Shown: one piece after another, positions 3,992-41,622 of the stretch
Layout of the letters: each line of letters begins with the position of its first letter
Position numbering within the stretch: position 1 is the stretch's first letter
IMG/VR virus record: IMGVR_UViG_2541047752_000007
Coordinates: 1-52,139 of that record
Direction: 5' to 3' (one strand)
Source: a virus
Taxonomy: Duplodnaviria; Heunggongvirae; Uroviricota; Caudoviricetes
DNA length: 52,139 bases
The notes under the pieces: generated by a model
The model's database searches: none
Told to the model about the DNA's origin: nothing
Seen by the model: only the letters and a program-made list of their open reading frames with translations
Program-made: the position numbers and the translations under genes

Positions 3992-5110
3992 TTACAAAAT
4001 GGAATATTCAGGGTAATAAACAAAGCGCCCAATTTCCCCATGATCCGGGCTGTAAATAATCACCGCTGCCAGACGCCGCGACCGCCAGCCGCCATTAGTT
4101 GAATATGCGTCTTTGCCAGCTAATGTGCCGTGGTGCTCAACTATTCCAAGTGATGTTTCAACAACTGATTGATGGTGCAGATGTCCAGTGTGAGCGTAAA
4201 CAGCCACAGACCTCCCGAAATCCTCCCGCCAGTCAGATACGCAAGCCGACAATAAATTTTCCGGCTTTTTGATAGTGTGCCCGTGGTGGTAAGCAAGGAA
4301 TGTTTTGCCGTACTGTGTGTGGTGGACGATAGCAGGGGACACATCAACAGTTACGCGCGGTTCATCTTCGTAAAAAGCCGCCAGCGCCGCACGTAGCCAA
4401 ATCATGCCAGACTGATCGTGATTGCCTGATAGTACCTGGATTTCAATATCCTTATGATTTAACAACATCTTTCCTACCGCCAGACGTACCGCTCGGATCG
4501 CTACATAGACAAGTTTTGCATAGCGTGAATCGCAATCCAGTACGTGATTGCTTGATGGCGTAACTGGCAACAGCCCGTCAGTGTGAAGAACATCCCCACC
4601 GAGAAGCAAAACAGCTTTTTCAGACATCGGCGCAGCGCCCACCGCGTAGTCAAAGAATTCATTCAACACGCGTTCAGCGATCCCAGTGTCGTAGCTCTCG
4701 CCGCATTCAGCTTTATGAGCAAGCGCCCCGATATGCAGATCAAATACCGGATAAAGGGCCAGGCTTTTTTGAAAATCAATTTCAGGCACTGGCACGGCCT
4801 CCGCGCGTGGTATTTCTTCCGTGAATGCGTCGCGGGCAGCTTCCATTAGCCTTTCCATTTCATCACGGTCACGGGCAGTTTTAATCCAGCGCATGACCGT
4901 ATTACCAGCCTTATCGACAAGAACAGATTCACCAGTAATGCCAAAACCAGGCGCGCGACGCGTTGATATTAAACCGCGTTTCGCCAGTTTTGCGCCTAGC
5001 CGCTCGACGTTGCGTTTTGACATGCCATATTTTTCAGCGATCTGCTTGTACGTTAAACCGTTGTTATATTCAGCGATCAATTGCTCATCGCTGATTTTTC
5101 TTTGCGACAT
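3992..5110 (-). CDS. HTH domain fused to calcineurin-like metallophosphoesterase
   Basis: 372 aa; N-terminal LTYKQIAEKYGMSKRNVERL HTH; phosphoesterase motifs FDLHIG, GGDVLHTDG, SGNHD, YHHGH, HTGHLHH. Confidence 0.6.
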   Translation of the reverse strand: MSQRKISDEQLIAEYNNGLTYKQIAEKYGMSKRNVERLGAKLAKRGLISTRRAPGFGITGESVLVDKAGNTVMRWIKTARDRDEMERLMEAARDAFTEEIPRAEAVPVPEIDFQKSLALYPVFDLHIGALAHKAECGESYDTGIAERVLNEFFDYAVGAAPMSEKAVLLLGGDVLHTDGLLPVTPSSNHVLDCDSRYAKLVYVAIRAVRLAVGKMLLNHKDIEIQVLSGNHDQSGMIWLRAALAAFYEDEPRVTVDVSPAIVHHTQYGKTFLAYHHGHTIKKPENLLSACVSDWREDFGRSVAVYAHTGHLHHQSVVETSLGIVEHHGTLAGKDAYSTNGGWRSRRLAAVIIYSPDHGEIGRFVYYPEYSIL

Positions 5111-5143: not shown

Positions 5144-5866
5144 TTATTGACAACAAACAATCTCTTTATATGTTTCTTCTACCATGTCGAATACTTCCGG
5201 CCTGTAATAAAAAAATTCAGTGCTACCATCAAACTTAACAGGGAAGTTTATTTTATAGTCACTGAAAGCATCGTGCATTTTGCTTTCTATTTCCTGCATA
5301 ATCTCAGTAGGCCCATTCCATGTTTTAACTACCTGTAAATCAGTCAGCCTTACACCTGCCTTACGAGCACTTTTAAATACTCTGTTCCTCCTTTCGTTCT
5401 CTTTTACGCTTACACCAATTTTCATTTGTGTAGGCACTTCAAGATCATCAACCATGATGTAAAGTTTTCCGTTGTAGTGTGATAAAAACCCGTATTTAGC
5501 GCATTTCGGGCAACCGCGCCCGCTCTTAATGTCTCTAGGTTTAGCCGACCACTCATGATCACAAACCTTGCAGCGGCATAATACTTTTGTACTGTTATTA
5601 ACTATTTCAACCAGCACTTCAATATCAGGATTAACCTTAGCAATAGCCGATATTTGTTCTTCATGCGATAACTTCATATTCCCAGCGCATTTCTGGCAAC
5701 CACGTCCATATTTAATATTGCTAGGTGTAGCCGACCATTCATGGTTACAAACTTTGCAGCGACATAATACTTTTGTACTGTTATTAACAATTTCCCCTAA
5801 CACTTCAACATCAGGATTAACTTTCGCGATAGCTGCAACTTGTTCTTCATGTGTTAACTTGCGCAT
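5144..5866 (-). CDS. T5orf172 (GIY-YIG-like) domain protein with duplicated N-terminal zinc ribbon
   Basis: 240 aa; two copies of HEEQxAAIAKVNPDxEVLxEIVNNSTKVLCRCKVCxHEWSA...GRGCxKCA; C-terminal GKLYIMVDD...KIGVS...TEFF matches T5orf172 pattern. Confidence 0.5.
   Translation of the reverse strand: MRKLTHEEQVAAIAKVNPDVEVLGEIVNNSTKVLCRCKVCNHEWSATPSNIKYGRGCQKCAGNMKLSHEEQISAIAKVNPDIEVLVEIVNNSTKVLCRCKVCDHEWSAKPRDIKSGRGCPKCAKYGFLSHYNGKLYIMVDDLEVPTQMKIGVSVKENERRNRVFKSARKAGVRLTDLQVVKTWNGPTEIMQEIESKMHDAFSDYKINFPVKFDGSTEFFYYRPEVFDMVEETYKEIVCCQ
5490..5866. repeat. intragenic tandem duplication, about 180-bp unit x2
   Basis: 5570-5700 and 5750-5870 are near-identical (e.g. gcagcggcataatacttttgtactgttattaac vs gcagcgacataatacttttgtactgttattaac). 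Confidence 0.8.
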
Positions 5867-6005
5867 CGCTCCAACTCCTTAAGAACATCATGCGCGCTAC
5901 AACGCAAAAACCCACCGCGACACCCGTTTGCACAGGTTGCAGTGTCTTATTGCGTCAGAGACGCCATCAGGTGGCTAATTTTCGATTTACAGAATGGTAG
6001 GTAGG

Positions 6006-6107
6006 TTATGGATTGATTAGCAGGTACAGACCGCCGAACAAGGCGACGTTAACAGCGATTGCCGCAGCGATGGCAAAAGCCAGGGCGAAAACGTGTTTAC
6101 CGTCCAT
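6006..6107 (-). CDS. small hydrophobic peptide (33 aa, one predicted TM helix)
   Basis: Hand-translated MDGKHVFALAFAIAAAIAVNVALFGGLYLLINP; GAGAGGA RBS about 8 nt upstream; below ORF-track cutoff. Confidence 0.35.
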   Translation of the reverse strand: MDGKHVFALAFAIAAAIAVNVALFGGLYLLINP

Positions 6108-6240
6108 TTTAAAATCCTCTCTGTAACGCTCTATAACGAGCTAATCGCAAAAAGGTAAGCAAGTGTAGCACCACATGCGATTTAGCTCGCTGGTGAGGTT
6201 GTTTTGTGGGTAATTTTGGATTTTTGCGGATCGTGATTGG

Positions 6241-7293
6241 TCAAAGAACGCCAGCGCGCGTATCACGTAGCGTTTTTGGTTTAAGCAGGAAATCAAGTGT
6301 CGCGGTGAAGCCATCGCCGAAGTAAAAATCTGAAGCCGTGTTTTTGAACGTTTCGAAGTAGGCGACAAAGCCGTTAATGCTTTTGTCTTTCAGGTAGTCA
6401 GTGAACGCATAGATCTTGCGTTCAAGATCCCGATCCAGTTCGGCAGGTGGTAACAGGCCGTCAAACGTGCTGTTAAATGCTTCCACCACGTCGGCAGCGT
6501 TTACAGTGGCTGACAGTTTGCGCCATTGTTCAGCATCAGTCAGATACCCATCAAATTTAGTTACCCGGCAAATGTTGATAGGCTTAGGTACTCCACCACG
6601 GCTACGCCATTGGGTTAAAGCCCACTCAATTACTAACGTGATCTCATTCTCCGTATACGCTTTACGTGTTTTTGTTTCTGTCAGTAGTTCTACGAATGGC
6701 TTAGCATCACGACATTTGCATCCTGCCTTGTCGTTGTAGAAGGCAAGGCAACGCAATGCCGCTTCGTTTACGCCATCCTGATTGACCATTTTTTGTTCAT
6801 TTTCGACAATACACGAAGTGTATATATCTTTTTCTCTTTCTTTTTCTACTTCTAATTCTAATTCATGACCCTTTCCTGACCCGGTCATGACCCTATCATG
6901 ACCTTTTTGTGTTGGATTGATTAACTTTTCTAATTTTAATTGCTCCTTCGCTGTGTTTATGGCGGCCCTGTAAGCGCTTTTAGAAGTCATTGATTGGTCC
7001 AGCCTTTTCAATAACTTTAAACAAGTTATGTGGCCTTGAGAACATTCAAACAAACCAATTTCGATGAAGTATTTCATCATTTCTTCTATACGTTTTTCAG
7101 TAGATCCGACGTTTCGAGCAATGATTCTCGCGTCATGTCGTAGGTCAAAAGTCAGATTGTGCTGATCTACGTCATAAGTTATTAGTTCGAGGCAATACCA
7201 ATAAAGCCCGTACCCTTCCAGGCCATAATCTAACAAAACGTTTTGAAGTTTTTCATCGCGGTTCGCATCGCTGTCATGCTTAAACCACTTCAT
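6241..7293 (-). CDS. phage replisome organizer / replication initiation protein (DUF4373-like N-terminus)
   Basis: 350 aa; N-terminus MKWFKHDSDANRDEKL...GLEGYGLYWYCLELI typical of Lin1244-like N-domain; GGAGGG RBS. Confidence 0.6.
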   Translation of the reverse strand: MKWFKHDSDANRDEKLQNVLLDYGLEGYGLYWYCLELITYDVDQHNLTFDLRHDARIIARNVGSTEKRIEEMMKYFIEIGLFECSQGHITCLKLLKRLDQSMTSKSAYRAAINTAKEQLKLEKLINPTQKGHDRVMTGSGKGHELELEVEKEREKDIYTSCIVENEQKMVNQDGVNEAALRCLAFYNDKAGCKCRDAKPFVELLTETKTRKAYTENEITLVIEWALTQWRSRGGVPKPINICRVTKFDGYLTDAEQWRKLSATVNAADVVEAFNSTFDGLLPPAELDRDLERKIYAFTDYLKDKSINGFVAYFETFKNTASDFYFGDGFTATLDFLLKPKTLRDTRAGVL

Positions 7294-7296
7294 AGA

Positions 7297-7554
7297 TCAT
7301 CCCTCCGGCAACATCACTACATAGACATCACTGAATGCATCAAGACGACAAACAAATCCTTTATCCATTAACGCGGCGAAGGCATCATGTACCGTATGAA
7401 CAGGAAGTTCACACATTGCGGCTACTTCTTTGCGTGATGCATCATGTACCCGTCCTTTGTTATCTGCCTTTTCAGCCAGAGCCATTAAGACAAGTTTTTG
7501 AATCGGGCTATTAAGTTTTACGTTCCATGCTTTACTAATCATGTTTATACTCAT
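7297..7554 (-). CDS. winged-helix DNA-binding protein (HTH_36-like)
   Basis: Start moved to ATG 7554 (GGAGA RBS); KLVLMALAEKADNKGRVHDASRKEVAAMCELPVHTVHDAFAALMDKGFV resembles HTH_36; first gene of leftward operon. Confidence 0.5.
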   Translation of the reverse strand: MSINMISKAWNVKLNSPIQKLVLMALAEKADNKGRVHDASRKEVAAMCELPVHTVHDAFAALMDKGFVCRLDAFSDVYVVMLPEG

Positions 7555-7662
7555 CGCATTTTCTCCTATGGTTAGAGTGAACGCGCGGGCGGGCATCCCA
7601 TTAGCATTAGATAGCAGTGACTGACCGCTCAACAGATCCCGCCGTTGCGTGATATTTGTTTT

Positions 7663-7696
7663 TCGCTTCGCAGCGACACCGGATTTTTAAAGAGCA
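7663..7696 (-). promoter_or_regulatory. candidate nut-like site (boxA plus boxB hairpin), leftward operon
   Basis: Minus strand reads TGCTCTTTAAAAATCCGG then hairpin TCGCT-GCGA-AGCGA; resembles remembered lambda nutL CGCTCTTAAAAATTAA plus boxB. Confidence 0.35.
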
Positions 7697-7821
7697 TAAG
7701 GTAAGTGCCTTTTTGTGCCTTCCGTTATCTTTTTCCTTGCGTCTTTGCAAGTATGGCCTTACCTTGTCTGCAAGTTTACAAAATGGAATTTTAAGATCAA
7801 GGCTTAAAATACACGTTTTGT

Positions 7822-7850
7822 GACTTGCATCAAACTTTTTGAGGTTATAG
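7822..7850 (+). promoter_or_regulatory. weak PRM-like promoter for the repressor gene, possibly leaderless mRNA
   Basis: GTGACT-N18-TTATAG ending about 9 nt before the cI ATG at 7860; no SD upstream of ATG. Confidence 0.3.
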
Positions 7851-7859
7851 GGTAGCGAC

Positions 7860-8507
7860 ATGAAAACAAAATGGTATGACTTAGCAAAGCAGCTCATGCG
7901 GGCGCAGGGCATGAGCCAGGATTCGCTCGCGGATCGTATGGGGATAACTAAAGGCGGCCTGTCACACTGGCTGAACGGTCGCCGAGAGCCAAATCTTGAA
8001 GATATTGCGCGGATTATGCGCGAGCTTGGTCGTCGGCAGTTTACTGTTACACATGATGGCATGGTCATTGATGATTCTGTTTCTAATACACTTCAGGCCG
8101 TGCCGCCGCGTGATTTAGGTAGTTACCCGGTTATTGACTGGAAGGACACAGTAAACAATATGGATGACGCAAGGCGTTCAGCATTACGACACGTTACGAC
8201 TAGCGTTATTTGTTCAGATGACAGTTACTGGCTGGTTGCCAAAGGTGAATCAATGAACGCGCCGCAGGGGTTGAGCATCCCGGCGGGGACGATGATACTT
8301 GTGGACCCGCACGCGCCAGCTATTGACGGCAAACTGGTTATAGCCCAGCTTGAGGAAGGGCAGATACCGACGTTTAAACAGTTGATTATTGATGGAGGTC
8401 AAAGGCTTTTACGTTCGCTCAATCCGCTGTATCCGCCAATCCCTATGAATCCAGAATCAAAAATTATAGGCGTGGTGGTTGATGCGAAGATCGTAAACCT
8501 GCCATAA
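7860..8507 (+). CDS. CI-like phage repressor (HTH_XRE plus S24 LexA-like peptidase)
   Basis: 215 aa; N-terminal HTH MSQDSLADRMGITKGGLSHWLNGRR; C-terminal GESM (Ser) and VVDAK (Lys) autocleavage dyad. Confidence 0.85.
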   Translation: MKTKWYDLAKQLMRAQGMSQDSLADRMGITKGGLSHWLNGRREPNLEDIARIMRELGRRQFTVTHDGMVIDDSVSNTLQAVPPRDLGSYPVIDWKDTVNNMDDARRSALRHVTTSVICSDDSYWLVAKGESMNAPQGLSIPAGTMILVDPHAPAIDGKLVIAQLEEGQIPTFKQLIIDGGQRLLRSLNPLYPPIPMNPESKIIGVVVDAKIVNLP

Positions 8508-8512
8508 ACATT

Positions 8513-8538
8513 AGCCGCCGAATGGCGGCTTTTCTTTG
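8513..8538 (+). terminator. rho-independent terminator after repressor gene
   Basis: agccgcc-gaat-ggcggct stem-loop followed by tttctttg. Confidence 0.5.
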
Positions 8539-8630
8539 CCTGGAAAACACCAAAACGTAAACAGAAAACGTTATTTATTATTTAAATATCAATGGCATAT
8601 AAAATATTTTAAAAAAGTATACAAAATGGA

Positions 8631-8659
8631 TTGACTCGATGTTTTACGGGGCGTATATT
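8631..8659 (+). promoter_or_regulatory. strong sigma70-like promoter (pL-like) for rightward early operon
   Basis: TTGACT-N17-TATATT; immediately preceded by the recurring tatacaaaatgga motif. Confidence 0.55.
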
Positions 8660-8701
8660 GCGAGTCAAAGGAAGGGCGCAGGTAACAAAAGCAACTTCCT
8701 G

Positions 8702-8718
8702 GCACTTTAAAAATCAGG
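8702..8718 (+). promoter_or_regulatory. candidate boxA-like element in 340-nt leader
   Basis: GGCACTTTAAAAATCAGG shares CTTTAAAAATC with the minus-strand boxA-like site at 7679-7696. Confidence 0.3.
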
Positions 8719-9007
8719 CTTAACACCTTGTCAACCGTGGAGTAACTCCCCGATGGGGGACCGAAAGCGGCACTGATAACAAGGCGCATGGGGTGTTTAA
8801 AGCGTTACATCCCCCACGAAACCGCACGCAAGGCGACGAGTCAGCTTGCTTGGAGTGAGCAAGGTCACGCCGGGAACGGCGATGATTGCGGGATTAGTTG
8901 AAAGATGTTAAGCCGCTCATTAACAATCTGGTCAGCCGCTGGAAGTGCGGCAATTAACGAAGATGATTTTTTATTAAGTATCATCAAGGATATACGGAGA
9001 TCAGATT

Positions 9008-9298
9008 ATGAGCGTTACAATTATATATGGTAAATGTGATAGCAAAATGAATGCCAGGGAACGCAGAAGGATAAAAAGAGAAAACGAAAGAAAATCATCA
9101 CCTGCAATCAATAAAACAGACAATGTGGATAAAGCTATTCGATTTGCAAACGAGGAAAGATGCAAACCAAATAGCATTAAAGAACGTCGCAAAGGATCAG
9201 TAAAATGGTATACGGAAAATGAAAGCGGCAGCTACTACCACGCAACGCAACCACGCCATTTAGGGGAAAAACCCCTGGATAAAGTCCGCTACCATTAA
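9008..9298 (+). CDS. basic protein with arginine-rich N-terminal motif, possible N-like antiterminator
   Basis: 96 aa; NARERRRIKRENERK resembles an arginine-rich RNA-binding motif; first gene after promoter and long leader. Confidence 0.35.
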   Translation: MSVTIIYGKCDSKMNARERRRIKRENERKSSPAINKTDNVDKAIRFANEERCKPNSIKERRKGSVKWYTENESGSYYHATQPRHLGEKPLDKVRYH

Positions 9299-9328
9299 TA
9301 CAAAATGTAAACATCCGGAGATGACATT

Positions 9329-9451
9329 ATGGTTATTCAGGCGCTTCAATTCAAACTGGCAGTAGCGGAAATGCTTCACGATGCCGAAATGTGGAGCGCC
9401 GCGAATAAAGCCTTATACATAGTGTTAACAGCACGGGAGATTAAATGGTGA
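9329..9451 (+). CDS. hypothetical small protein (40 aa)
   Basis: Hand-translated MVIQALQFKLAVAEMLHDAEMWSAANKALYIVLTAREIKW; GGAG RBS; stop overlaps erf start. Confidence 0.3.
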   Translation: MVIQALQFKLAVAEMLHDAEMWSAANKALYIVLTAREIKW

Positions 9452-10089
9452 AAACAGAGTTACATAAAAAGCTATGGACGATTCAGCAAACGCTGAACGC
9501 GCCGAAAAATCAGCGTAATAATTTTGGTGGATATAATTACAGGTCGGCGGAGGATATTTTAGAGGCGGTTAAACCACTGCTTCAAAATATCACGCTGACT
9601 GTTAGTGATGAAATTGTCCTGATCGGCAATCGCTATTATGTGAAAGCAACGGCGACGCTAAGCGACGGTGAAGACGTAATAGCGGTAACTGCTTATGCCA
9701 GGGAGGAAGAAAACAAGAAGGGTATGGACGCCAGCCAGCTAACAGGAGCAACATCAAGTTACGCGCGTAAATATGCTTTGAACGGTTTATTCTGTATAGA
9801 TGATGCTCGCGATCCTGATACTGATGCTTACGCGAAGCAGACAGGCCAGCAGCCGCGACAACAGAAAAACCCACCAAAACAACAACCGCAGCAGAAGAAA
9901 GCGCCGCCAAATCCTGATGAAGTATTAGCACGTTTCTGTGATGCAGCAGCGAAAGCGCAGGACGCTAACAAGCTGCGTGAAATATTTGGCAAATGCTGGA
10001 AATTACTACCGGAAGGATCGGAACATCGAATCAAGGCAAAAGATGTTTATGACATCCGGGTCGCAGAGCTTAACGGGGAGATGGGTTAA
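9445..10089 (+). CDS. erf: ERF-family single-strand annealing protein
   Basis: 214 aa; NFGGYNYRSAEDILEAVKPLL and overall ERF-like pattern; followed directly by ssb. Confidence 0.8.
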   Translation: MVKTELHKKLWTIQQTLNAPKNQRNNFGGYNYRSAEDILEAVKPLLQNITLTVSDEIVLIGNRYYVKATATLSDGEDVIAVTAYAREEENKKGMDASQLTGATSSYARKYALNGLFCIDDARDPDTDAYAKQTGQQPRQQKNPPKQQPQQKKAPPNPDEVLARFCDAAAKAQDANKLREIFGKCWKLLPEGSEHRIKAKDVYDIRVAELNGEMG

Positions 10090-10508
10090 TGAGTTTGAAT
10101 TCAATTACGCTGGGCGGGAATATCGGAAACGACATGGAAGTTCGCTACACGCAAAACGGTAAAGCGATTGGTAGTTTTCCGTTAGCTGTAACGAATGGCT
10201 ACGGTGATAACAAGCGGACAATGTGGATCACTTGCCTGGTATTTGGTGAGCGTGCGGAAAAATTAGCGCCACATATCCGCAAGGGTGGAAAAATAGTGGT
10301 AAGCGGTCGCCTGGATGTTCGGCAATATGACCGGAACGACGGCACGAAGGGGACTGCGGTAGAAGTGGCGGTTAATGAATTTGAATTCATGAATGTTAAC
10401 CAACAAGGCCAGCAGCAAGGACAGCAGCAGAAAGCGCCGCCGCAGCAGCAGAATAATAACGGGAATAATCCGCCTCCGATGGACTTCGACGACGATATTC
10501 CTTTTTAG
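10089..10508 (+). CDS. ssb: single-stranded DNA-binding protein
   Basis: 139 aa; OB-fold N-terminus, Gln/Gly-rich linker, acidic tail DFDDDIPF. Confidence 0.9.
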   Translation: MSLNSITLGGNIGNDMEVRYTQNGKAIGSFPLAVTNGYGDNKRTMWITCLVFGERAEKLAPHIRKGGKIVVSGRLDVRQYDRNDGTKGTAVEVAVNEFEFMNVNQQGQQQGQQQKAPPQQQNNNGNNPPPMDFDDDIPF

Positions 10509-10524
10509 AATCAATGTGTTAGCG

Positions 10525-10803
10525 ATGAGTGATTATCTAAAACCGCCACCGCAACCACGAACAAAAGAGCAAGTATTAAAAGAAGCCCGCGATCAAATCG
10601 ATCGCGGGCTTTTTTTATGCGGCACGGCAGCGGATCGAATGGCGAAAAGATTTAGTGACCTGTACGCGAAGCAAATCTGGTTTGACAACTGGCGAGCGAG
10701 TTCTTACCCGCTACAGAAAACTGATGATATGCAGTGGCCTGAATATGTTGATCCACGAATGCGCAAATATCGCGGGCGTATGGGCAAGGTTATTAACGAT
10801 TAA
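10525..10803 (+). CDS. hypothetical protein (ORF spans a terminator-like hairpin)
   Basis: ORF-track frame 10393-10803 with first ATG at 10525; contains hairpin 10585-10617. Confidence 0.35.
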   Translation: MSDYLKPPPQPRTKEQVLKEARDQIDRGLFLCGTAADRMAKRFSDLYAKQIWFDNWRASSYPLQKTDDMQWPEYVDPRMRKYRGRMGKVIND

Positions 10804-10815
10804 TGAGGTATTACC

Positions 10816-11067
10816 ATGACAGCTACAACATTAAGCGAAAATAACGGGCGCGGTTTTCAGGGGACTGCGGAAACCTCAGACGATGGTGATGTATTTGTCG
10901 AATTCGGTGGCGGTAACTATGAATTCGAAACGTCGGCGGGCTGGCACGATAAATGGCCTTTCCCGACGCGCAAGGAATTAAGCGAACGTAAATCATTTGG
11001 CGAAGATGCCGAACGGCTGGCTAATAACAAATGGCTTGATAAGTTCATTGCGGAGGGTGGCAAATGA
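10816..11067 (+). CDS. hypothetical protein
   Basis: 83 aa acidic ORF. Confidence 0.4.
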   Translation: MTATTLSENNGRGFQGTAETSDDGDVFVEFGGGNYEFETSAGWHDKWPFPTRKELSERKSFGEDAERLANNKWLDKFIAEGGK

Positions 11068-11171
11068 AAAAGATTGCAATGTTATCCGCCGCCGTTGCTG
11101 TGGCGGCTGTTTACCTTAGTGCGTCACTCTATATCACTGTGGCGATTGTTAAGCTGATTACTGACATGTGA
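11064..11171 (+). CDS. small single-TM peptide (35 aa)
   Basis: MKKIAMLSAAVAVAAVYLSASLYITVAIVKLITDM; GGAGGGTGG RBS; ATGA overlap with upstream stop. Confidence 0.4.
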   Translation: MKKIAMLSAAVAVAAVYLSASLYITVAIVKLITDM

Positions 11172-11178
11172 GGTTTAT

Positions 11179-11295
11179 ATGCGAGTCGACAAAAATACTG
11201 TCAAGGCTGTTTTCTGTGTGGTCGCTTTCGTCTTCATGGTGGTAATAGCTGGCGCGACTGCGGCAATTATTAGCTATATCGGCGGGGTGATGTGA
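11179..11295 (+). CDS. small single-TM peptide (38 aa)
   Basis: MRVDKNTVKAVFCVVAFVFMVVIAGATAAIISYIGGVM; GAGG RBS. Confidence 0.4.
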   Translation: MRVDKNTVKAVFCVVAFVFMVVIAGATAAIISYIGGVM

Positions 11296-11567
11296 TGCCA
11301 TTCATGAATATCAAAACGGGTGATCTGGTCGTGCTCCCGGAATACCGTAAAGACCCTGGTCTGGTTGTGCTGAATAAGACATATAACGATCTTGAGCGTC
11401 CGATCCTGGTTAAATATCTGGACGGAACAATTATAGAGCCGCGCTTCTTTGACAAGATCGAACTGAAGGCCCGTAATGTTCGCGTTAAGCCGTTCCGGGC
11501 TTATGTTGAAGACCACTGGCGGAAATTGTTCGCCGGACTGAATGGGATGTTCGGCGTATGGCTATAA
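11295..11567 (+). CDS. hypothetical protein
   Basis: 90 aa ORF, ATG at 11295. Confidence 0.4.
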   Translation: MPFMNIKTGDLVVLPEYRKDPGLVVLNKTYNDLERPILVKYLDGTIIEPRFFDKIELKARNVRVKPFRAYVEDHWRKLFAGLNGMFGVWL

Positions 11568-11749
11568 AATTGGTAAAAGTTAAAGATTTAAAAGGCGGCG
11601 AAAAGATCCGTACGTGGTATGGGTATAAATTTATCATAGCTGCCTTTTCTTTTGGGCCTGGTGGTCAGGTAACATTATTTGACGAGGAAGATGATGAGGT
11701 GGGTCAATGGCATCTTGAACAATATGTTGAGGTGTTAAATGAAAATTAA
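11558..11749 (+). CDS. hypothetical protein
   Basis: 63 aa ORF. Confidence 0.35.
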   Translation: MAIKLVKVKDLKGGEKIRTWYGYKFIIAAFSFGPGGQVTLFDEEDDEVGQWHLEQYVEVLNEN

Positions 11750-12071
11750 ATTCCATAAAGCATATGATAGCGAAACAAACAAGCTATCACTATTTATCGA
11801 ATTCGAACGCCGGATCGTGGTTGTGCCCTGGGCGCGGCGCTTCAATGACGCTGGCGGACGTAGACAATTCGCGGTCGATATGCTGTTACGCGGCTGCGGC
11901 CTTATGCGTCCGCTATCTGATTTAAAACGAATGATGCCGGGATCGTTCGGTCAGATTGATGAAATAGAAATAAGCCCGGAAGAACTGAAACGGGAGCGTG
12001 ATTTATTCCTTTCAAGCGAAGGAAACCCGTTTAATTCAGAAACTGAAATGAAATGGCATCACCCACTATAA
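11739..12071 (+). CDS. hypothetical protein
   Basis: 110 aa ORF. Confidence 0.4.
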   Translation: MKIKFHKAYDSETNKLSLFIEFERRIVVVPWARRFNDAGGRRQFAVDMLLRGCGLMRPLSDLKRMMPGSFGQIDEIEISPEELKRERDLFLSSEGNPFNSETEMKWHHPL

Positions 12072-12084
12072 AAGGATAAATATC

Positions 12085-12705
12085 ATGAACGACATCAAAA
12101 CAGCTTACTCTCTCGGTAATGAAGGTATGTTGATCACTCGCTATACAGATGATGCAAACTTTCACGAAGTGGAAATTAAAGATTATCACGAAGTATTGAA
12201 AGATATGGAAGCTGGCGCGTATGACGCTGATTTGAATCTGGCGCTACAGGTTGTTGATATTGTGATGGGTGCGTCAATCCGCGATTACGTGTCTTTAAGT
12301 ATGGAAGAAAAAACATCGGTAGCGCGTTATGTATTCTCTCTTACTTTTGTGAAGCGCATGGAGGAAGAATTCGGACGCGTACCAGTGCCGGAAGAGGTTG
12401 ATCCGCTCGCGTTCGGAAGTGCTGTCATTTTCCCGTTGAACAAGGAACAGCTTGGTAGTGTTTCACTGCATCCTATGCGCGGCCTGATGAAAAATATCTT
12501 TGAGGTTAAGATGTTGCAGAAATGCATTGAGGAAGGCCACAAAGAGGAAGAAGTAAAAGCGCTCATGCCATTGTTTTACGGTGAAATGGTTGGCAATGAT
12601 ATGCGTGCAAATGATTTCGGCGTACGGGCGGCTATCGCTGTGCTTAATGACGCACGGAAAAACGCACAGCCGACGCCTGAACAGGGAAAACGTGTACTGC
12701 ATTAA
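12085..12705 (+). CDS. hypothetical protein
   Basis: 206 aa ORF, no recognised motif. Confidence 0.45.
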   Translation: MNDIKTAYSLGNEGMLITRYTDDANFHEVEIKDYHEVLKDMEAGAYDADLNLALQVVDIVMGASIRDYVSLSMEEKTSVARYVFSLTFVKRMEEEFGRVPVPEEVDPLAFGSAVIFPLNKEQLGSVSLHPMRGLMKNIFEVKMLQKCIEEGHKEEEVKALMPLFYGEMVGNDMRANDFGVRAAIAVLNDARKNAQPTPEQGKRVLH

Positions 12706-12804
12706 CCGAGTAATTCCGATCACATAAATATACATTTTGTATTGTGATTGTATATCCGTTTTGTAAGCCGAAATCAAAAGGTTTACGGTGCGGAGGAAGC
12801 AAAA

Positions 12805-13023
12805 ATGGAACGCGAATTGATGCTTTATTGCGTAGAAGGTGGCGTAGGTCACGATGCCTACGTCGCCGGGAAAGACTATCCAGCCGATGAAGTGCTTTCT
12901 AATATGCACTTCAGAGAAAATGAAAGCCAGGTGTCTGTGTGGAAACGGTGTATTGATGGTATTGAGGTTGTAAGTATCGAACGGTATTTAGGCACGTTTG
13001 ATTACGGTGTTATTGAGGCTTAA
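12805..13023 (+). CDS. hypothetical protein
   Basis: ORF-track frame 12748-13023, ATG MERELML at 12805. Confidence 0.35.
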   Translation: MERELMLYCVEGGVGHDAYVAGKDYPADEVLSNMHFRENESQVSVWKRCIDGIEVVSIERYLGTFDYGVIEA

Positions 13024-13025
13024 TT

Positions 13026-13118
13026 ATGGACGATACATTGTTTTATATGTGCTGTTTCTGGGGTTTTATTGCCTTATACCTGTTTATCAGGTGGTTTATT
13101 GAATACCATATGAGGTAA
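13026..13118 (+). CDS. small hydrophobic peptide (30 aa)
   Basis: MDDTLFYMCCFWGFIALYLFIRWFIEYHMR; GAGG RBS 8 nt upstream. Confidence 0.35.
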   Translation: MDDTLFYMCCFWGFIALYLFIRWFIEYHMR

Positions 13119-13121
13119 TGT

Positions 13122-13316
13122 ATGGAACAAGAAACTGATTATCGAATACCTGATAGCCTAAAATTAGTTGGCATTGGTTTCGGGTGTAGATTTGTATCTG
13201 ACGCAAAAGGAGCGATTTATTTAATACGTCTTATTGATGGCGTTCAACATATAAGGAGATTAGGAATTTACATCAAAGCATTCAGAAGAGGTTATTTAAA
13301 AACTCATGAAATTTAA
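13122..13316 (+). CDS. hypothetical protein
   Basis: 64 aa ORF. Confidence 0.35.
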   Translation: MEQETDYRIPDSLKLVGIGFGCRFVSDAKGAIYLIRLIDGVQHIRRLGIYIKAFRRGYLKTHEI

Positions 13317-13509
13317 ACATTACATGGAATGGAAAATTCCAGAAGCAGCAACAAAGGCAGCGCCAGGAAATTTTTCTGGCGTTTATTTTTATATGGATGG
13401 CAAATGGTATTTCGGCAGCAGGCCGGATCACTACTATCAAGAAATATGCAAGCCTCACGTATGGGATATTAAAGAGCGCGTGAAAGGCGGGGTAATTGAG
13501 GACGTTTAA
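13306..13509 (+). CDS. hypothetical protein
   Basis: 67 aa ORF. Confidence 0.35.
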   Translation: MKFKHYMEWKIPEAATKAAPGNFSGVYFYMDGKWYFGSRPDHYYQEICKPHVWDIKERVKGGVIEDV

Positions 13510-13510
13510 A

Positions 13511-13747
13511 ATGCTTAAGAGCTTTTTTAACTGGTTGGGGGTGTGGCTTTTGGCTACGCTTTTTGTTTTCCTGGCGGCCCTGACTGTTATCGGTGTTATT
13601 ATGCTGGGTGCTATGTTTATTACGTGGTCGCTTCCTGAATTTAACGACATTGGGAATATTCTTTTTGCAGCCCGCGCTTTATTGGCTGTTAGCGCATTCA
13701 TTGGTTTTTGCTGGACTGCCGCGCCGGATTGGACTGACACATGGTGA
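13511..13747 (+). CDS. small membrane protein (two predicted TM helices)
   Basis: MLKSFFNWLGVWLLATLFVFLAALTVIGVIMLGAMFITW...; GAGGA RBS. Confidence 0.4.
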   Translation: MLKSFFNWLGVWLLATLFVFLAALTVIGVIMLGAMFITWSLPEFNDIGNILFAARALLAVSAFIGFCWTAAPDWTDTW

Positions 13748-23478: not shown

Positions 23479-23971
23479 CATGATTAGCCAATCGCTGAAG
23501 AATAAGATTATTGCTGCGGCGGCTGGTGGGGCGATCGCTATTGCGGCGGTGATGGTTAAACCATTAGAGGGCGTGGAGTACGATCCCTATCGTGATGTTA
23601 TCGGCGTATGGACCGTTTGCTATGGTCACACCGGAAAAGACATCATGCTTGGTAAGACTTACACGCAATCAGAATGCGATGCTTTGTTAAACAAGGATCT
23701 CCACAAAACCGCAAAAGCGATTGACCCCTATATTAAAGTCGAAATATCAGATTTTACCCGCGCGGCGCTTTATTCATTCGCCTATAACGTAGGTGCAACC
23801 AATTTCAAAACATCAACCTTATTAAAACTACTCAATGACGGCAAGAAATCAGAAGCGTGCGCACAGCTTAAACGCTGGGTATACGCTGGCGGTAAGAAGT
23901 GGCAAGGCCTGGTAAACCGCCGCGAGGTTGAATATGCCGTTTGCGAATGGGGGGAAACGTGGACAAGGTGA
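23479..23971 (+). CDS. SAR endolysin (T4-lysozyme-like, phage 21 R-type)
   Basis: N-terminal SAR segment [15 protein letters not shown]; [34 protein letters not shown] nearly identical to remembered phage 21 endolysin. Confidence 0.85.
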
Positions 23972-24429
23972 AGGCGTTAATTATCGCCGCTGTTGTTTGC
24001 ATTATTGCCGGACTGACCGCCGTAACATGTTATTACCAGGGTGAGGCGGCAAGGTTACAGGAAGAAGTCACGGTAACGAAAGGCGCACTGAAAACGGCAA
24101 GTAACACTATTCAGCAGATGAAGGAGCGAAACGCCGAACTGTCAAAACTTGATAAGAGGTATCACGATGAGATTAAAGCTATCAGATCTGACATTGCCGA
24201 TCTGCGCACTGGCATTGATAACGGTACTATCCGGTTGCGCGTCAACGCAATACCCGTGCGAGTGTCCGACCCCGCCGCGACCGCCAGCCGCATTGATGGA
24301 GCCACCTGCGAGCTTGATGCCACTGCTAGACAATCTTATCTATCCCTCAGAGAACAACTAAAAGAGAAAGACGCACAGATCACTGGCCTACAGGACTACA
24401 TCAAAACTCAGTGTTTACGCAAAGAATAG
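23947..24429 (+). CDS. i-spanin (Rz-like)
   Basis: N-terminal [16 protein letters not shown] then coiled-coil; start codon uncertain (ATG 23947 or GTG 23959). Confidence 0.6.
24167..24361 (+). CDS. o-spanin (Rz1-like) embedded in +1 frame of Rz
   Basis: [24 protein letters not shown] lipobox then Pro-rich [13 protein letters not shown]; AAGAGG RBS. Confidence 0.6.
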   Translation: MRLKLSDLTLPICALALITVLSGCASTQYPCECPTPPRPPAALMEPPASLMPLLDNLIYPSENN

Positions 24430-24708: not shown

Positions 24709-25251
24709 ATGGCTAAGGCTAAAGGCATTAAATTGCCTCAATTTAAGATCCCACTCTTTGAGCATACAACCGTTTTCTTTTGCCCGACCCGCGAGATGTT
24801 CTATGAATTTTGCGAAAAGGCAGGAATTCCGATTGAACCTGATTTCGAGTTGGCTGGAGGATTAACGCTTACTTGCACTGGCGAGAATGGTGGTAACTTC
24901 TACGTGATCGCAGTATTCAACAATGAGTTGGGAACGCTGGTCCATGAATGCGCCCACACTACATTCCACGTTTTAAGTGATGTAGGCGTCGTGGCTACCA
25001 CGGATCCTACCCATCCGGCGAATGAGACTTACGCTTACATGGTAGGCCGTATCTTCGATGCGTTTTTCCCTATCCTAGCAGAATCAAACGAAGCACAGGT
25101 TGCAGCAATGCAGGCGGCAGAAGTCGTCGATCAGGCGCTGGAACAGGCAGAACAGCCGAAGGAAGAAGAAAAGCCAGCGAAGAAAGGTAAACGTAAGCCT
25201 AAGCAAAAAGATGCGTTAGTCCAGCGTGTAATGAGCTTTAAACGAGGCTGA
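24709..25251 (+). CDS. putative HExxH zinc-metallopeptidase-like protein with Lys-rich tail
   Basis: 180 aa; LVHECAHTTFH motif; C-terminal KPAKKGKRKPKQK. Confidence 0.4.
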   Translation: MAKAKGIKLPQFKIPLFEHTTVFFCPTREMFYEFCEKAGIPIEPDFELAGGLTLTCTGENGGNFYVIAVFNNELGTLVHECAHTTFHVLSDVGVVATTDPTHPANETYAYMVGRIFDAFFPILAESNEAQVAAMQAAEVVDQALEQAEQPKEEEKPAKKGKRKPKQKDALVQRVMSFKRG

Positions 25252-25253
25252 TT

Positions 25254-25343
25254 ATGATTGCATCAATATTAACGTTTATAGGCGGTATGGCGGCTGGATT
25301 CATTCTTTGCATGTTTCTGGTGGTTATGTCTAAGCAGGATTGA
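25254..25343 (+). CDS. small single-TM peptide 1 (29 aa)
   Basis: MIASILTFIGGMAAGFILCMFLVVMSKQD; GAGG RBS 7 nt upstream. Confidence 0.45.
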   Translation: MIASILTFIGGMAAGFILCMFLVVMSKQD

Positions 25344-25345
25344 TT

Positions 25346-25453
25346 ATGGATGATTACATTATCGCCGGATTAATCGGTATCTCTGTGTTTCTGGTGGGTT
25401 CTATTATAGTTGCGCTGATAAACGTATATATCAAGTATTTGGTGGAGGGGTAA
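25346..25453 (+). CDS. small single-TM peptide 2 (35 aa)
   Basis: MDDYIIAGLIGISVFLVGSIIVALINVYIKYLVEG; AGGA RBS. Confidence 0.45.
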   Translation: MDDYIIAGLIGISVFLVGSIIVALINVYIKYLVEG

Positions 25454-25454
25454 G

Positions 25455-25529
25455 ATGATTGACCCGCTCATTATCCTTTCTGCCTGCGTCGCTGTATGGC
25501 TGGCGATCATGATATTCATTGAAAGCTGA
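25455..25529 (+). CDS. small single-TM peptide 3 (24 aa)
   Basis: MIDPLIILSACVAVWLAIMIFIES; GGAGGGG RBS. Confidence 0.45.
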   Translation: MIDPLIILSACVAVWLAIMIFIES

Positions 25530-25540
25530 AGGTATTCACC

Positions 25541-25621
25541 ATGAACGCATATGAAATGCTATTGCTGGTGGCTGTGGTTGTAGTCATTGCCGTAGATGTT
25601 TATCGGGAGTTTAAAAAATGA
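25541..25621 (+). CDS. small single-TM peptide 4 (26 aa)
   Basis: MNAYEMLLLVAVVVVIAVDVYREFKK; GAAGG RBS. Confidence 0.45.
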   Translation: MNAYEMLLLVAVVVVIAVDVYREFKK

Positions 25622-25686
25622 AATGGCTTGATTTCCTTTTCCTGATTGTTGCGATTGTTCTTACCATGACCGCGCTGACTCAATAG
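25618..25686 (+). CDS. small single-TM peptide 5 (22 aa)
   Basis: MKWLDFLFLIVAIVLTMTALTQ; ATGA overlap with peptide 4; GGGAG RBS. Confidence 0.45.
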   Translation: MKWLDFLFLIVAIVLTMTALTQ

Positions 25687-25694
25687 GTGAGTAA

Positions 25695-25769
25695 ATGGAT
25701 GTTATCGAAGCCGTATTATTCGTATGTATCGCCGCGTTAATTATCGTTGGGGTGATTATCAATGTCTGA
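25695..25769 (+). CDS. small single-TM peptide 6 (24 aa)
   Basis: MDVIEAVLFVCIAALIIVGVIINV; AGGTGA RBS. Confidence 0.45.
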   Translation: MDVIEAVLFVCIAALIIVGVIINV

Positions 25770-25830
25770 CCGTGAATTATTAATCATAGCTATAGGTTCG
25801 CTGTTAGCTGTTATTGTTTTCTTCTGGTGA
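25762..25830 (+). CDS. small single-TM peptide 7 (22 aa)
   Basis: MSDRELLIIAIGSLLAVIVFFW; 8-nt overlap with peptide 6; GGGGTGA RBS. Confidence 0.45.
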   Translation: MSDRELLIIAIGSLLAVIVFFW

Positions 25831-25838
25831 GAAATATT

Positions 25839-25982
25839 ATGTTTGAATTTATCGATCTACTGATGTTCTTGCTTTGCGCTGGTGTGCTTATTATCGCGTT
25901 AATGTTATGCGCATACGTGATTGTAATGATTGGCGCGCTTATTTACAGAGAAGCAAAACAGAGATTTAAGGGTAAACAATGA
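25839..25982 (+). CDS. small single-TM peptide 8 (47 aa)
   Basis: MFEFIDLLMFLLCAGVLIIALMLCAYVIVMIGALIYREAKQRFKGKQ; GGTGAG RBS. Confidence 0.45.
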   Translation: MFEFIDLLMFLLCAGVLIIALMLCAYVIVMIGALIYREAKQRFKGKQ

Positions 25983-26062
25983 AAGAGCTATTCGACTGGT
26001 TGGAAGTATTAACATACTGCGCAAGTTTTGCGGCTTGCGTATATATCATCAATAAATATTGA
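25979..26062 (+). CDS. small single-TM peptide 9 (27 aa)
   Basis: MKELFDWLEVLTYCASFAACVYIINKY; ATGA overlap with peptide 8; AAGGG RBS. Confidence 0.45.
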   Translation: MKELFDWLEVLTYCASFAACVYIINKY

Positions 26063-40503: not shown

Positions 40504-40659
40504 TTAGTTAAGCGCCCTCAGGAAGAAATCCCGGTATTCATCATCCTTCGCGTTCATCATGAATTGACCGTATTTGAATGCGTCGTCGAAACCCTTAACA
40601 ATTGCTACTTCCACTTGCTCGAATGCGTTGTTTAGCATCACTACTACATAGCTACTCAT
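40504..40659 (-). CDS. hypothetical small protein (51 aa)
   Basis: Hand-translated MSSYVVVMLNNAFEQVEVAIVKGFDDAFKYGQFMMNAKDDEYRDFFLRALN; 17 nt upstream of the 84-aa gene. Confidence 0.35.
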   Translation of the reverse strand: MSSYVVVMLNNAFEQVEVAIVKGFDDAFKYGQFMMNAKDDEYRDFFLRALN

Positions 40660-41412: not shown

Positions 41413-41529
41413 TTATTCCATTTCCATTAACGCTATATTTTCCGCTATCGTTTTCCAGTCCAGATCTACAGCATGAACACCAAATACTATCAATCCCATT
41501 GCGATTAGTGCTAAAACTTCGATTTTCAT
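41413..41529 (-). CDS. small single-TM peptide (38 aa)
   Basis: MKIEVLALIAMGLIVFGVHAVDLDWKTIAENIALMEME; GAGG RBS. Confidence 0.35.
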   Translation of the reverse strand: MKIEVLALIAMGLIVFGVHAVDLDWKTIAENIALMEME

Positions 41530-41541
41530 AATCAACCTCAC

Positions 41542-41622
41542 TTAATTAAGAAAGGCATAAACGATGACAATCGCGCCAGCCACTACCAAAACGTTTTCGA
41601 TTACTTCGTCCACTCTATTCAT
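41542..41622 (-). CDS. small single-TM peptide (26 aa)
   Basis: MNRVDEVIENVLVVAGAIVIVYAFLN; start shares a base with upstream stop. Confidence 0.3.
   Translation of the reverse strand: MNRVDEVIENVLVVAGAIVIVYAFLN

Follow-up and report, generated by a model that had tools for sequence, protein, structure and literature searches.

The stretch of DNA analysed here (the window) comprises 52,139 nucleotides (nt), positions 1 to 52,139 of the IMG/VR virus record IMGVR_UViG_2541047752_000007, and belongs by its sequence similarities to the mEp021 ("mEpimmI") group, as a temperate coliphage or a prophage. Four very short open reading frames (ORFs), here called A to D, lie in its early regions and encode predicted hydrophobic peptides of 30 to 38 amino acids (aa). 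From their in-frame and syntenic conservation, from ratios of non-synonymous to synonymous polymorphism (pN/pS) below 1 and from amino-acid replacements that are conservative only in the annotated frame, we conclude that A-D are protein-coding genes, and we propose that they act as early single-pass peptides of the inner membrane which bind a membrane-protein partner.

A sequence-only reading had described A-D as isolated genes for single-transmembrane (TM) peptides preceded by Shine-Dalgarno (SD) sequences, with B and C back to back, and this description holds at the positions and on the strands given below. Each ORF begins with ATG, has an SD sequence 6-7 nt upstream and contains one uncharged hydrophobic stretch of 18-29 residues; the spacer between B and C is 7 nt long and contains the SD of C. 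The ORFs and their SD sequences are as follows.

6006-6107, minus strand: ORF A, 33 aa, MDGKHVFALAFAIAAAIAVNVALFGGLYLLINP, ATG with SD
6115-6121, minus strand: SD of A, GAGAGGA, 7 nt before the ATG, conserved across aligned relatives
11052-11057, plus strand: SD of B, GGAGGG, 6 nt before the ATG, within the end of the upstream 83-aa gene
11064-11171, plus strand: ORF B, 35 aa, MKKIAMLSAAVAVAAVYLSASLYITVAIVKLITDM, ATG with SD
11170-11173, plus strand: SD of C, GAGG, overlapping the stop codon of B (TGAGG)
11179-11295, plus strand: ORF C, 38 aa, MRVDKNTVKAVFCVVAFVFMVVIAGATAAIISYIGGVM, ATG with SD
13015-13018, plus strand: SD of D, GAGG, 7 nt before the ATG
13026-13118, plus strand: ORF D, 30 aa, MDDTLFYMCCFWGFIALYLFIRWFIEYHMR, ATG with SD

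The rightward ORFs are packed tightly against their neighbours. The ATG of B overlaps the stop codon of the upstream 83-aa gene (ATGA), and its GGAGGG is conserved in 7/7 GenBank relatives; the stop codon of C overlaps the start of the next gene, of 90/91 aa (TGATG). Start/stop overlaps of this sort are typical of translationally coupled phage operon genes, and because B and C share them with the adjacent genes, their translation is probably coupled to that of these neighbours. ORF D starts 2 nt past the stop codon of the preceding gene, and its last codons include the SD of the next, 64-aa gene. ORF A, which sits downstream of the replication gene in the leftward operon, is unlike B-D flanked by long conserved non-coding spacers (133 and 139 nt).

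Existing annotation settles nothing, since the callers disagree. PHANOTATE-annotated relatives have a 'hypothetical protein' of the same size called at each position (orthologs in mEp010/013/044/515/554 and MagusPhagus, e.g. mEp515_14, _31, _32 and _38, and MagusPhagus CDS0113, 0112 and 0106), which appear without name, evidence or discussion in the describing paper (PMC11893012), and in the original mEp021 record A-D are not called. Conservation was therefore tested directly, in GenBank relatives and in IMG/VR relatives retrieved via the neighbouring genes. All four ORFs are kept in frame and in synteny across the phage family, at the same map position in mEpimmI members (B-D in 7 GenBank genomes, A in 6, plus about 40 IMG/VR relatives). 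The sequence-only reading, which a lack of conservation in relatives would have refuted, passes this check. ORF A occurs in 38/40 IMG/VR loci covering its site, the exceptions being L117, with a different cassette, and L091, where the ORF is truncated; it is in frame in all six GenBank relatives whose sequence was retrieved there, a set that excludes MagusPhagus. Both B and C are present in 44/44 loci, B being fused to the upstream frame in one of them, and D in the 43/43 loci that cover its site, the copy in L016 being cut short by a stop. B falls into three divergent sequence types, with identity down to 43%, all of which are still hydrophobic. Distant D homologs at about 45% identity (L046, L050) likewise keep their synteny, and D always has the same two neighbours, genes of 72-74 aa and of 64-68 aa, L050, the most diverged relative, included. 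The exact A-D peptides are encoded on about 99-456 public contigs, most of which are E. coli chromosomes, and always as 'hypothetical protein'.

Selection on the peptides was measured from 27-35 distinct DNA variants per family. In the annotated frame, pN/pS was 0.19 for A (bootstrap 95% confidence interval (CI) 0.10-0.31), 0.33 for B (0.22-0.45), 0.41 for C (0.28-0.57) and 0.24 for D (0.15-0.39), and no bootstrap replicate reached 1. The shifted sense frames gave 0.76-2.15, with stops in nearly all sequences. Measured against the flanking genes (0.23 for the 91-aa gene and 0.16 for the 64-aa gene), A and D are constrained like ordinary genes, and B and C somewhat less. Between the window and the mEp phages the synonymous sites of B and C are saturated, with non-synonymous divergence (dN) at 0.19-0.42. 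A frame test was added because the antisense frame that shares the wobble position also had a lowish pN/pS: replacements had a mean BLOSUM62 score of +0.36 to +0.58 in the annotated frame and of -0.21 to -1.71 in the five others, and the amino-acid identity of A-D is highest in the annotated frame. Antisense ORFs at 6013-6126 (plus strand) and 11158-11301 (minus strand) were considered as real genes and rejected, as they have no SD, run against the operon and show radical replacements; the lowish antisense pN/pS was likewise rejected as a sign of coding, being the artefact expected from wobble sharing.

A predicted hydrophobic helix is the constant feature of all four families. The uncharged stretches measure 29 (A), 26 (B), 29 (C) and 18 (D) residues, and the maximum of the mean Kyte-Doolittle hydropathy over 17 residues never falls below 2.14 among the 17-31 peptide variants of each family, not even in B variants at 43% identity or in D homologs at about 45%. 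For C, AlphaFold2 gives a single unbroken helix (residues 5-37, mean predicted local distance difference test score (pLDDT) 89.7, from an 18-sequence alignment), and so it does for D (residues 3-29, pLDDT 94.3, from the single sequence). ORF A carries an Asn in mid-helix (N20), a GG pair and an AxxxA spacing, and its variants keep almost the whole helix, these mid-membrane elements included. B begins with MKK before its uncharged stretch and conserves its C-terminal half, YLSxSLYITVAIxKLI; C has a basic N-terminus, MRVDKNTVK, and conserved residues F12, C13, F17, F19, G25, A26, A28 and A29. In D, an acidic N-terminus (MDD) and a basic/aromatic tail (RWFIEYHMR) bracket the hydrophobic stretch, and the conserved motif is W-G-x5-L-F-x-R-W-x-I-E. 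By the positive-inside rule, B and C should lie with the N-terminus inside because their N-termini are basic, and D should be N-out/C-in because its N-terminus is acidic and its tail basic. We rejected C or D as lipoproteins, a lipobox (VVSC) being found only in some C variants and not conserved.

Searches for known families returned no Pfam or NCBIfam model for A-D at E <= 1, toxin and holin families included, so that by this measure the four are not members of the Hok, Ldr, TisB, Ibs, Fst, MgrB, AcrZ, KdpF or CydX families or of any holin family; Rfam has nothing at the four ORFs. DNA motif scans over 2.9 million IMG/VR contigs found the A core motif on 39 contigs and the D motif on 41, all of the mEp021 group, and a mis-spaced D pattern, used as a negative control, on 7 unrelated contigs. 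With tblastn against 50,697 phage records, D matched only the 7 relatives; under low-complexity masking the same search gave one match for C and is blind to A and B, whose known orthologs it missed. A search with an alignment of concatenated B and C, among proteins of at least 40 aa, recovered C variants of 40 aa plus a few reads that were frameshifted or fused, none of them outside the group, and no relative was found among GTDB species representatives with an alignment of the 91-aa neighbour or with one of A and D, the latter possibly masked. Restriction to the mEp021 group is thereby supported for A and D, within IMG/VR, by their DNA motifs.

The surroundings of the four ORFs are those of the early region of this group. 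Over window positions 5800-13400, megablast aligns mEp515, 010, 021, 044, 554 and 013 at about 86-89% identity and, over the right part, Escherichia phage MagusPhagus at 95.7%; a prophage of E. coli M15 is 99.9% identical to window 10816-11567. The mEpimmI phages are described as Nus-dependent, non-lambdoid temperate coliphages (Negrete-Mendez et al. 2025, PMC11893012), whose N-like protein, Gp17, works at nutL, nutR1 and nutR2; their core proteins include a Kil-like one, their exclusion function is attributed to Lpp lipoproteins, and the description makes no mention of small membrane peptides (PMC11893012). A local map, built from the ORFs and the annotation of relatives, has these landmarks.

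6241-7293, minus strand: replication gene (Lin1244/Lin1753 domain), leftward operon
7860-8507: LexA/CI-type repressor
9008-9298, plus strand: N-like antiterminator, rightward operon

The leftward operon contains, in order, a helix-turn-helix (HTH) gene, the replication gene, ORF A and a variable cassette. The rightward operon contains the N-like antiterminator, Erf, SSB, Abc2 and then small genes of unknown function, among them B, C and D; Ipe and a methyltransferase lie beyond this run of small genes. From synteny with the mEp021 map we infer that both operons are early and antiterminated. The PHROGs of the neighbouring genes are all of 'unknown function' except that of Abc2. The 90/91-aa gene beside C (11295-11567, plus strand) bears the RefSeq name 'toxin-antitoxin system toxin subunit' and, in mEp021, the name 'putative toxin-antitoxin system subunit'; this name looks unsupported because no Pfam or NCBIfam model matched the gene, only a PHROG of unknown function. 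Just upstream of the homolog of Ipe ('inducer of pleiotropic effects'), the gene at 13511-13747 (plus strand) encodes a protein of 78 aa that has two or three hydrophobic segments, so the rightward early operon has larger membrane proteins besides the microproteins.

The DNA around ORF A, and that within B, carries further structured elements.

5906-5944, minus strand: terminator-like element, made up of a hairpin at 5913-5944 and then a U5 run at 5906-5910, which lies about 60 nt downstream of A
6138-6188, minus strand: inverted repeat upstream of A, GAGCTAAATCGCA ... TGCGATTAGCTC, in the 133-nt non-coding spacer
11088-11107, plus strand: terminator-like hairpin within B, in Ala codons, GCCGCC-GTTGCTGT-GGCGGC, then TGTTTACCTT

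Upstream of A, the outer 8-bp arms of the inverted repeat (GAGCTAAA/TTTAGCTC) are conserved in relatives, and the leader (6105-6245, minus strand) folds more stably than its shuffles (z = -3.5). A long-range pairing that would occlude the SD of A, as in hok mRNA, was considered and rejected, its pairing partner not being conserved in relatives. A consensus scan, which is weak evidence, found no sigma-70-like promoter upstream of A. Two hairpins lie downstream (5906-5975, minus strand): a first, small one, GCG(T/C)C-TCT-G(A/G)CGC, with a compensatory change, and a longer one followed by GGTTTTTG, the inner stem of the terminator-like hairpin at 5913-5944 showing compensatory changes among relatives (ACCTGTGCAAACGGGT / ACCCTTACAAGTGGGT / ACATGTGCAAACGTGT). 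The hairpin at 5906-5944 was not flagged by a simple terminator scan. Past these hairpins gene content varies between relatives, and the elements flanking A look like the border between a conserved replication module and a variable cassette. In L117 the slot of ORF A (2200-2420) holds an unrelated HTH gene of 72 aa. Near a contig end in L099 (2681-3023; the same as L209 6918-7187), A occurs twice in tandem, the copies being 235 nt apart, a duplication that may be an assembly artefact.

As for the hairpin in B, the GenBank record of mEp021 marks a predicted terminator ('TERM_2 score=85') at the equivalent place in the B ortholog (L003 6224-6240). Terminators t1, t2 and t5 are reported to have been shown by experiment, and the marked site could be one of these. 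Most B variants have hairpins, but their positions shift and their sequences differ, and the element is possibly a weak terminator or a by-product of GCN-rich coding. At the other end of the rightward run, D and the 64-aa gene share a frame in the window, with TAA and one codon between them (13026-13316, plus strand), and a rare in-frame fusion of the two (P0062, 96 aa) is found on 4 public contigs; in some relatives, e.g. mEp013, the spacing is out of frame. The fusion is a weak hint that D and the 64-aa protein may work together. Directly before its D homolog, L050 carries an extra small hydrophobic ORF, MWLIDLILGCWLFALVGFVCYFAWEEGKHNGR (4426-4526, plus strand), with an 81-aa ORF containing a TM segment just upstream.

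Tiny hydrophobic genes are more frequent in this window than in the controls. We counted them under a strict rule: an ATG start; GGAG, GAGG or AGGA at -16 to -4; 20-60 aa; a mean Kyte-Doolittle hydropathy of 2.0 or higher over 17 residues; and a position outside all ORFs that reach 80 aa. The window (52 kb) contains 8 such ORFs (0.15 per kb), lambda (48.5 kb) contains 1 (0.02 per kb) and 35 unrelated phage early-region loci (113 kb) contain 2 (0.018 per kb), and 100 shuffles of the window yield 0.2 +/- 0.4 (maximum 1). The excess is about 8-fold or more over this background, for which the controls are few, and it bears out the earlier claim of an unusually high number. The accompanying figure of at least 15 peptides does not stand under the strict rule, which 8 pass; it is reached only when TTG/GTG starts and weak SDs are admitted, about 15 then being made up of A-D, 8-9 ORFs in an array and 2 ORFs in a leftward operon. 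The one ORF that passes the strict rule in lambda (L155, J02459) is an unannotated hydrophobic ORF of 26 aa with ATG and SD, MTIYITELITGLLVIAGLFIWGRGKS, at 40567-40647 (plus strand) between ren and ninB. The two other groups of small hydrophobic ORFs in the window are located as follows.

25254-26062, plus strand: 8-9 tiny hydrophobic ORFs in an array, the nine-gene array of the sequence-only reading, with the lysis genes on one side and the small terminase gene on the other
41413-41622, minus strand: two adjacent small hydrophobic ORFs, of 26 aa (ATG with SD) and 42 aa (GTG), in a leftward accessory operon

The array is denser and more unusual than A-D and is a finding separate from them. In 44 relatives (loci L156-L201) its region contains 2-11 tiny hydrophobic ORFs (median 7) in changing combinations, with recurring peptide types and 170 distinct peptides; the region is cassette-like throughout the family. 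The first array ORF, MIASILTFIGGMAAGFILCMFLVVMSKQD (25240-25348, plus strand), has nucleotide matches at about 81% in unrelated large E. coli myoviruses, e.g. vB_EcoM-Pr121LW and LL12, which suggests horizontal exchange of this 29-codon gene; a wider query around it matched 98 phage records. The ORFs at 41413-41622 follow genes of 82 and 67 aa, their region has about 80% nucleotide identity in relatives, and PHANOTATE calls hypothetical proteins there.

How might such peptides act? MgrB, AcrZ and MgtS are bacterial small membrane regulators that act by helix-helix association with membrane proteins. With KdpF, CydX and PmrR they make up a class of at most 50 aa studied by the Storz laboratory, which like A-D has 30-50 residues and one TM helix and is often missed by annotation. 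Packing against a larger membrane protein, as in the MgrB-type regulators, is what we propose for A-D, and in both cases the helix contains conserved polar or small residues. The likeness is a functional analogy with the literature: A-D share no sequence similarity or Pfam match with these regulators, and they lie in phage early operons where the regulators belong to host stress regulons. Among phage proteins, T4 Imm, Sp and rI, HK97 gp15, the lambda S holin/antiholin and the pinholins are also phage-encoded and membrane-inserted and act via membrane-protein interactions, as would A-D, but they are larger (about 60-220 aa, often with 2-3 TM segments). These exclusion and lysis-timing proteins are encoded in lysis cassettes or expressed from prophages and have no homology to A-D; in the window, spanin-like genes at 23941-24429 lie 10-18 kb away, which places A-D outside the lysis cassette. 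Fremin, Bhatt and Kyrpides reportedly predicted phage small gene families at scale in 2022 (Cell Rep 39:110984); like those families, A-D are short ORFs that conservation, and not gene callers, brings to light, and they differ in that each gene has evidence of its own here, from synteny, pN/pS, the frame test and helix prediction. As a class, phage small proteins are abundant and largely uncharacterised (Beggs & Bassler 2024, PMC11323111). A-D belong to this known kind, the phage small proteins, with families that appear specific to the mEp021 group.

In the mechanism that we propose, ORF A (leftward, after the replication gene) and ORFs B-D (rightward) would be transcribed early after infection or induction, under antitermination by Gp17 and Nus, with B and C translated by coupling to their neighbours. 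The peptides would be inserted into the inner membrane by an SRP/YidC-type route (SRP, signal recognition particle) and would associate helix-to-helix with a specific membrane-protein partner of host or phage; candidate roles are host takeover, the exclusion of other phages and the modulation of transport or division. Polar and small residues in TM helices drive specific helix-helix packing. It is because the conserved positions of A-D are such residues inside the helix (N20, GG and AxxxA in A; Y/S/S/Y/T in B; G/A/C in C; W-G...R-W..E in D) that we favour partner binding over bulk damage to the membrane, since a mere anchor or pore-former would be expected to tolerate free exchange of I, L, V and F. 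We give this chain as a whole slightly better than even chances, and its last step less.

Several observations weigh against this view. The antisense frame that shares the wobble position has a pN/pS of 0.35-0.50 and is open in all A variants and most C variants. The RefSeq annotation by the Prokaryotic Genome Annotation Pipeline (PGAP) calls none of A-D in the 99.9% identical M15 prophage, and the four have no match in Pfam, NCBIfam, PHROGs or PADLOC and no homolog of known function in these collections. Part of the nucleotide conservation has other causes, namely the hairpin in B and the SD of the next gene in D. The structure predictions cover C and D, the helices of A and B being read from hydropathy. 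The N-terminal TM halves of B and C vary freely, as expected of a generic anchor, in line with their pN/pS of 0.33-0.41. Translation and membrane insertion are deduced from the sequence, and residue conservation is the single line of argument for helix packing.

Membrane-damaging toxic peptides (type I toxin-, Kil- or holin-like), which arrest the host by depolarising or permeabilising its inner membrane, would be another reading of these genes, and one that we regard as rather unlikely. Type I toxins (Hok/Gef, TisB, Ldr, Ibs, ShoB, Fst) do resemble A-D in size (19-50 aa), in their single hydrophobic helix, in their charged termini and in a frequent prophage location, early operons of temperate phages often include functions that kill the host, and the stable fold of the A leader recalls the structure often found in type I toxin mRNAs. 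Yet translation of these toxins is repressed, whereas the strong SDs and the translational coupling of A-D point to unrestrained translation, A-D lie in polycistronic early operons, and the apparent SD-occluding pairing in the A leader is not kept in relatives. Nor did a consensus scan, itself weak evidence, find an opposite-strand promoter-like site within about 100 nt of A-D. The Kil-like protein named in the mEpimmI core (PMC11893012) would speak for a toxic role, but A-D match no Pfam toxin or holin family at the threshold given above, the lysis cassette is elsewhere (about 23.9-24.4 kb) and the conservation of specific polar and small residues exceeds the needs of a generic pore-former. 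ORF A, taken singly, might also be a moron-type gene for lysogenic conversion or exclusion, autonomous and expressed from the prophage, that protects the lysogen e.g. from superinfection. Several features of A fit such a gene: its long conserved non-coding spacers, which the other three lack, the inverted repeat upstream and the covarying hairpin with U-run downstream, its place at the border of a variable cassette region where an HTH gene replaces it in L117, and its two tandem copies on one contig. We nevertheless hold this to be distinctly unlikely, for the scan found no sigma-70-like promoter upstream of A, read-through from the early promoter suffices for a gene that follows the replication gene immediately and on its strand, the tandem copies near a contig end may be an assembly artefact, and the exclusion function published for the group is given to Lpp lipoproteins (PMC11893012).

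That the peptides are irrelevant, their frames being chance or spacer frames kept for other DNA or RNA signals (terminator, next SD, ribosome coupling) or going untranslated, is disfavoured and seems to us very improbable. This would account for the terminator-like hairpin in B with TERM_2 in the mEp021 record, for the SD of the next gene in the 3' end of D and for the way in which B and C bridge two larger genes via overlapping stops and starts; PGAP and the original mEp021 annotation omit all four, and PHANOTATE over-calls short ORFs. It would not account for pN/pS values of 0.19-0.41 with CIs far below 1, on a par with genuine neighbouring genes, for replacements that are conservative only in the annotated frame, or for a hydrophobic helix that persists in all variants although synonymous change in B and C is saturated. 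The hairpin in B, moreover, is conserved neither in position nor in sequence, and shuffles of the window contain 0.2 such ORFs against the 8 observed.

If A-D are genes for partner-binding membrane peptides, as we propose, their significance begins with annotation: four genes whose purifying selection is as strong as that on their neighbours are absent from the RefSeq annotation of E. coli prophages in hundreds of sequenced strains, a concrete case of short membrane genes lost by standard pipelines. The mEp021 family, reported to be prevalent in the human gut, has about 8 times the background density of tiny membrane genes. Should the targets of A-D be host membrane proteins, the peptides would offer compact natural probes or inhibitors of them, and since mEp021 grows on E. 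coli K-12, each gene is open to knockout tests. More tentatively, and with considerable doubt, the dozen or more single-pass microproteins (A-D as near-universal early genes, the rest as a shuffling array of 2-11) could jointly be TM-helix 'effectors', each docking onto a different machine of the host inner membrane, such as a transporter, a sensor kinase, the divisome, a protease or the route of DNA entry. If this were true, the cell envelope would be reprogrammed during infection, and membrane microproteins would be a dedicated host-takeover strategy of the whole phage family.

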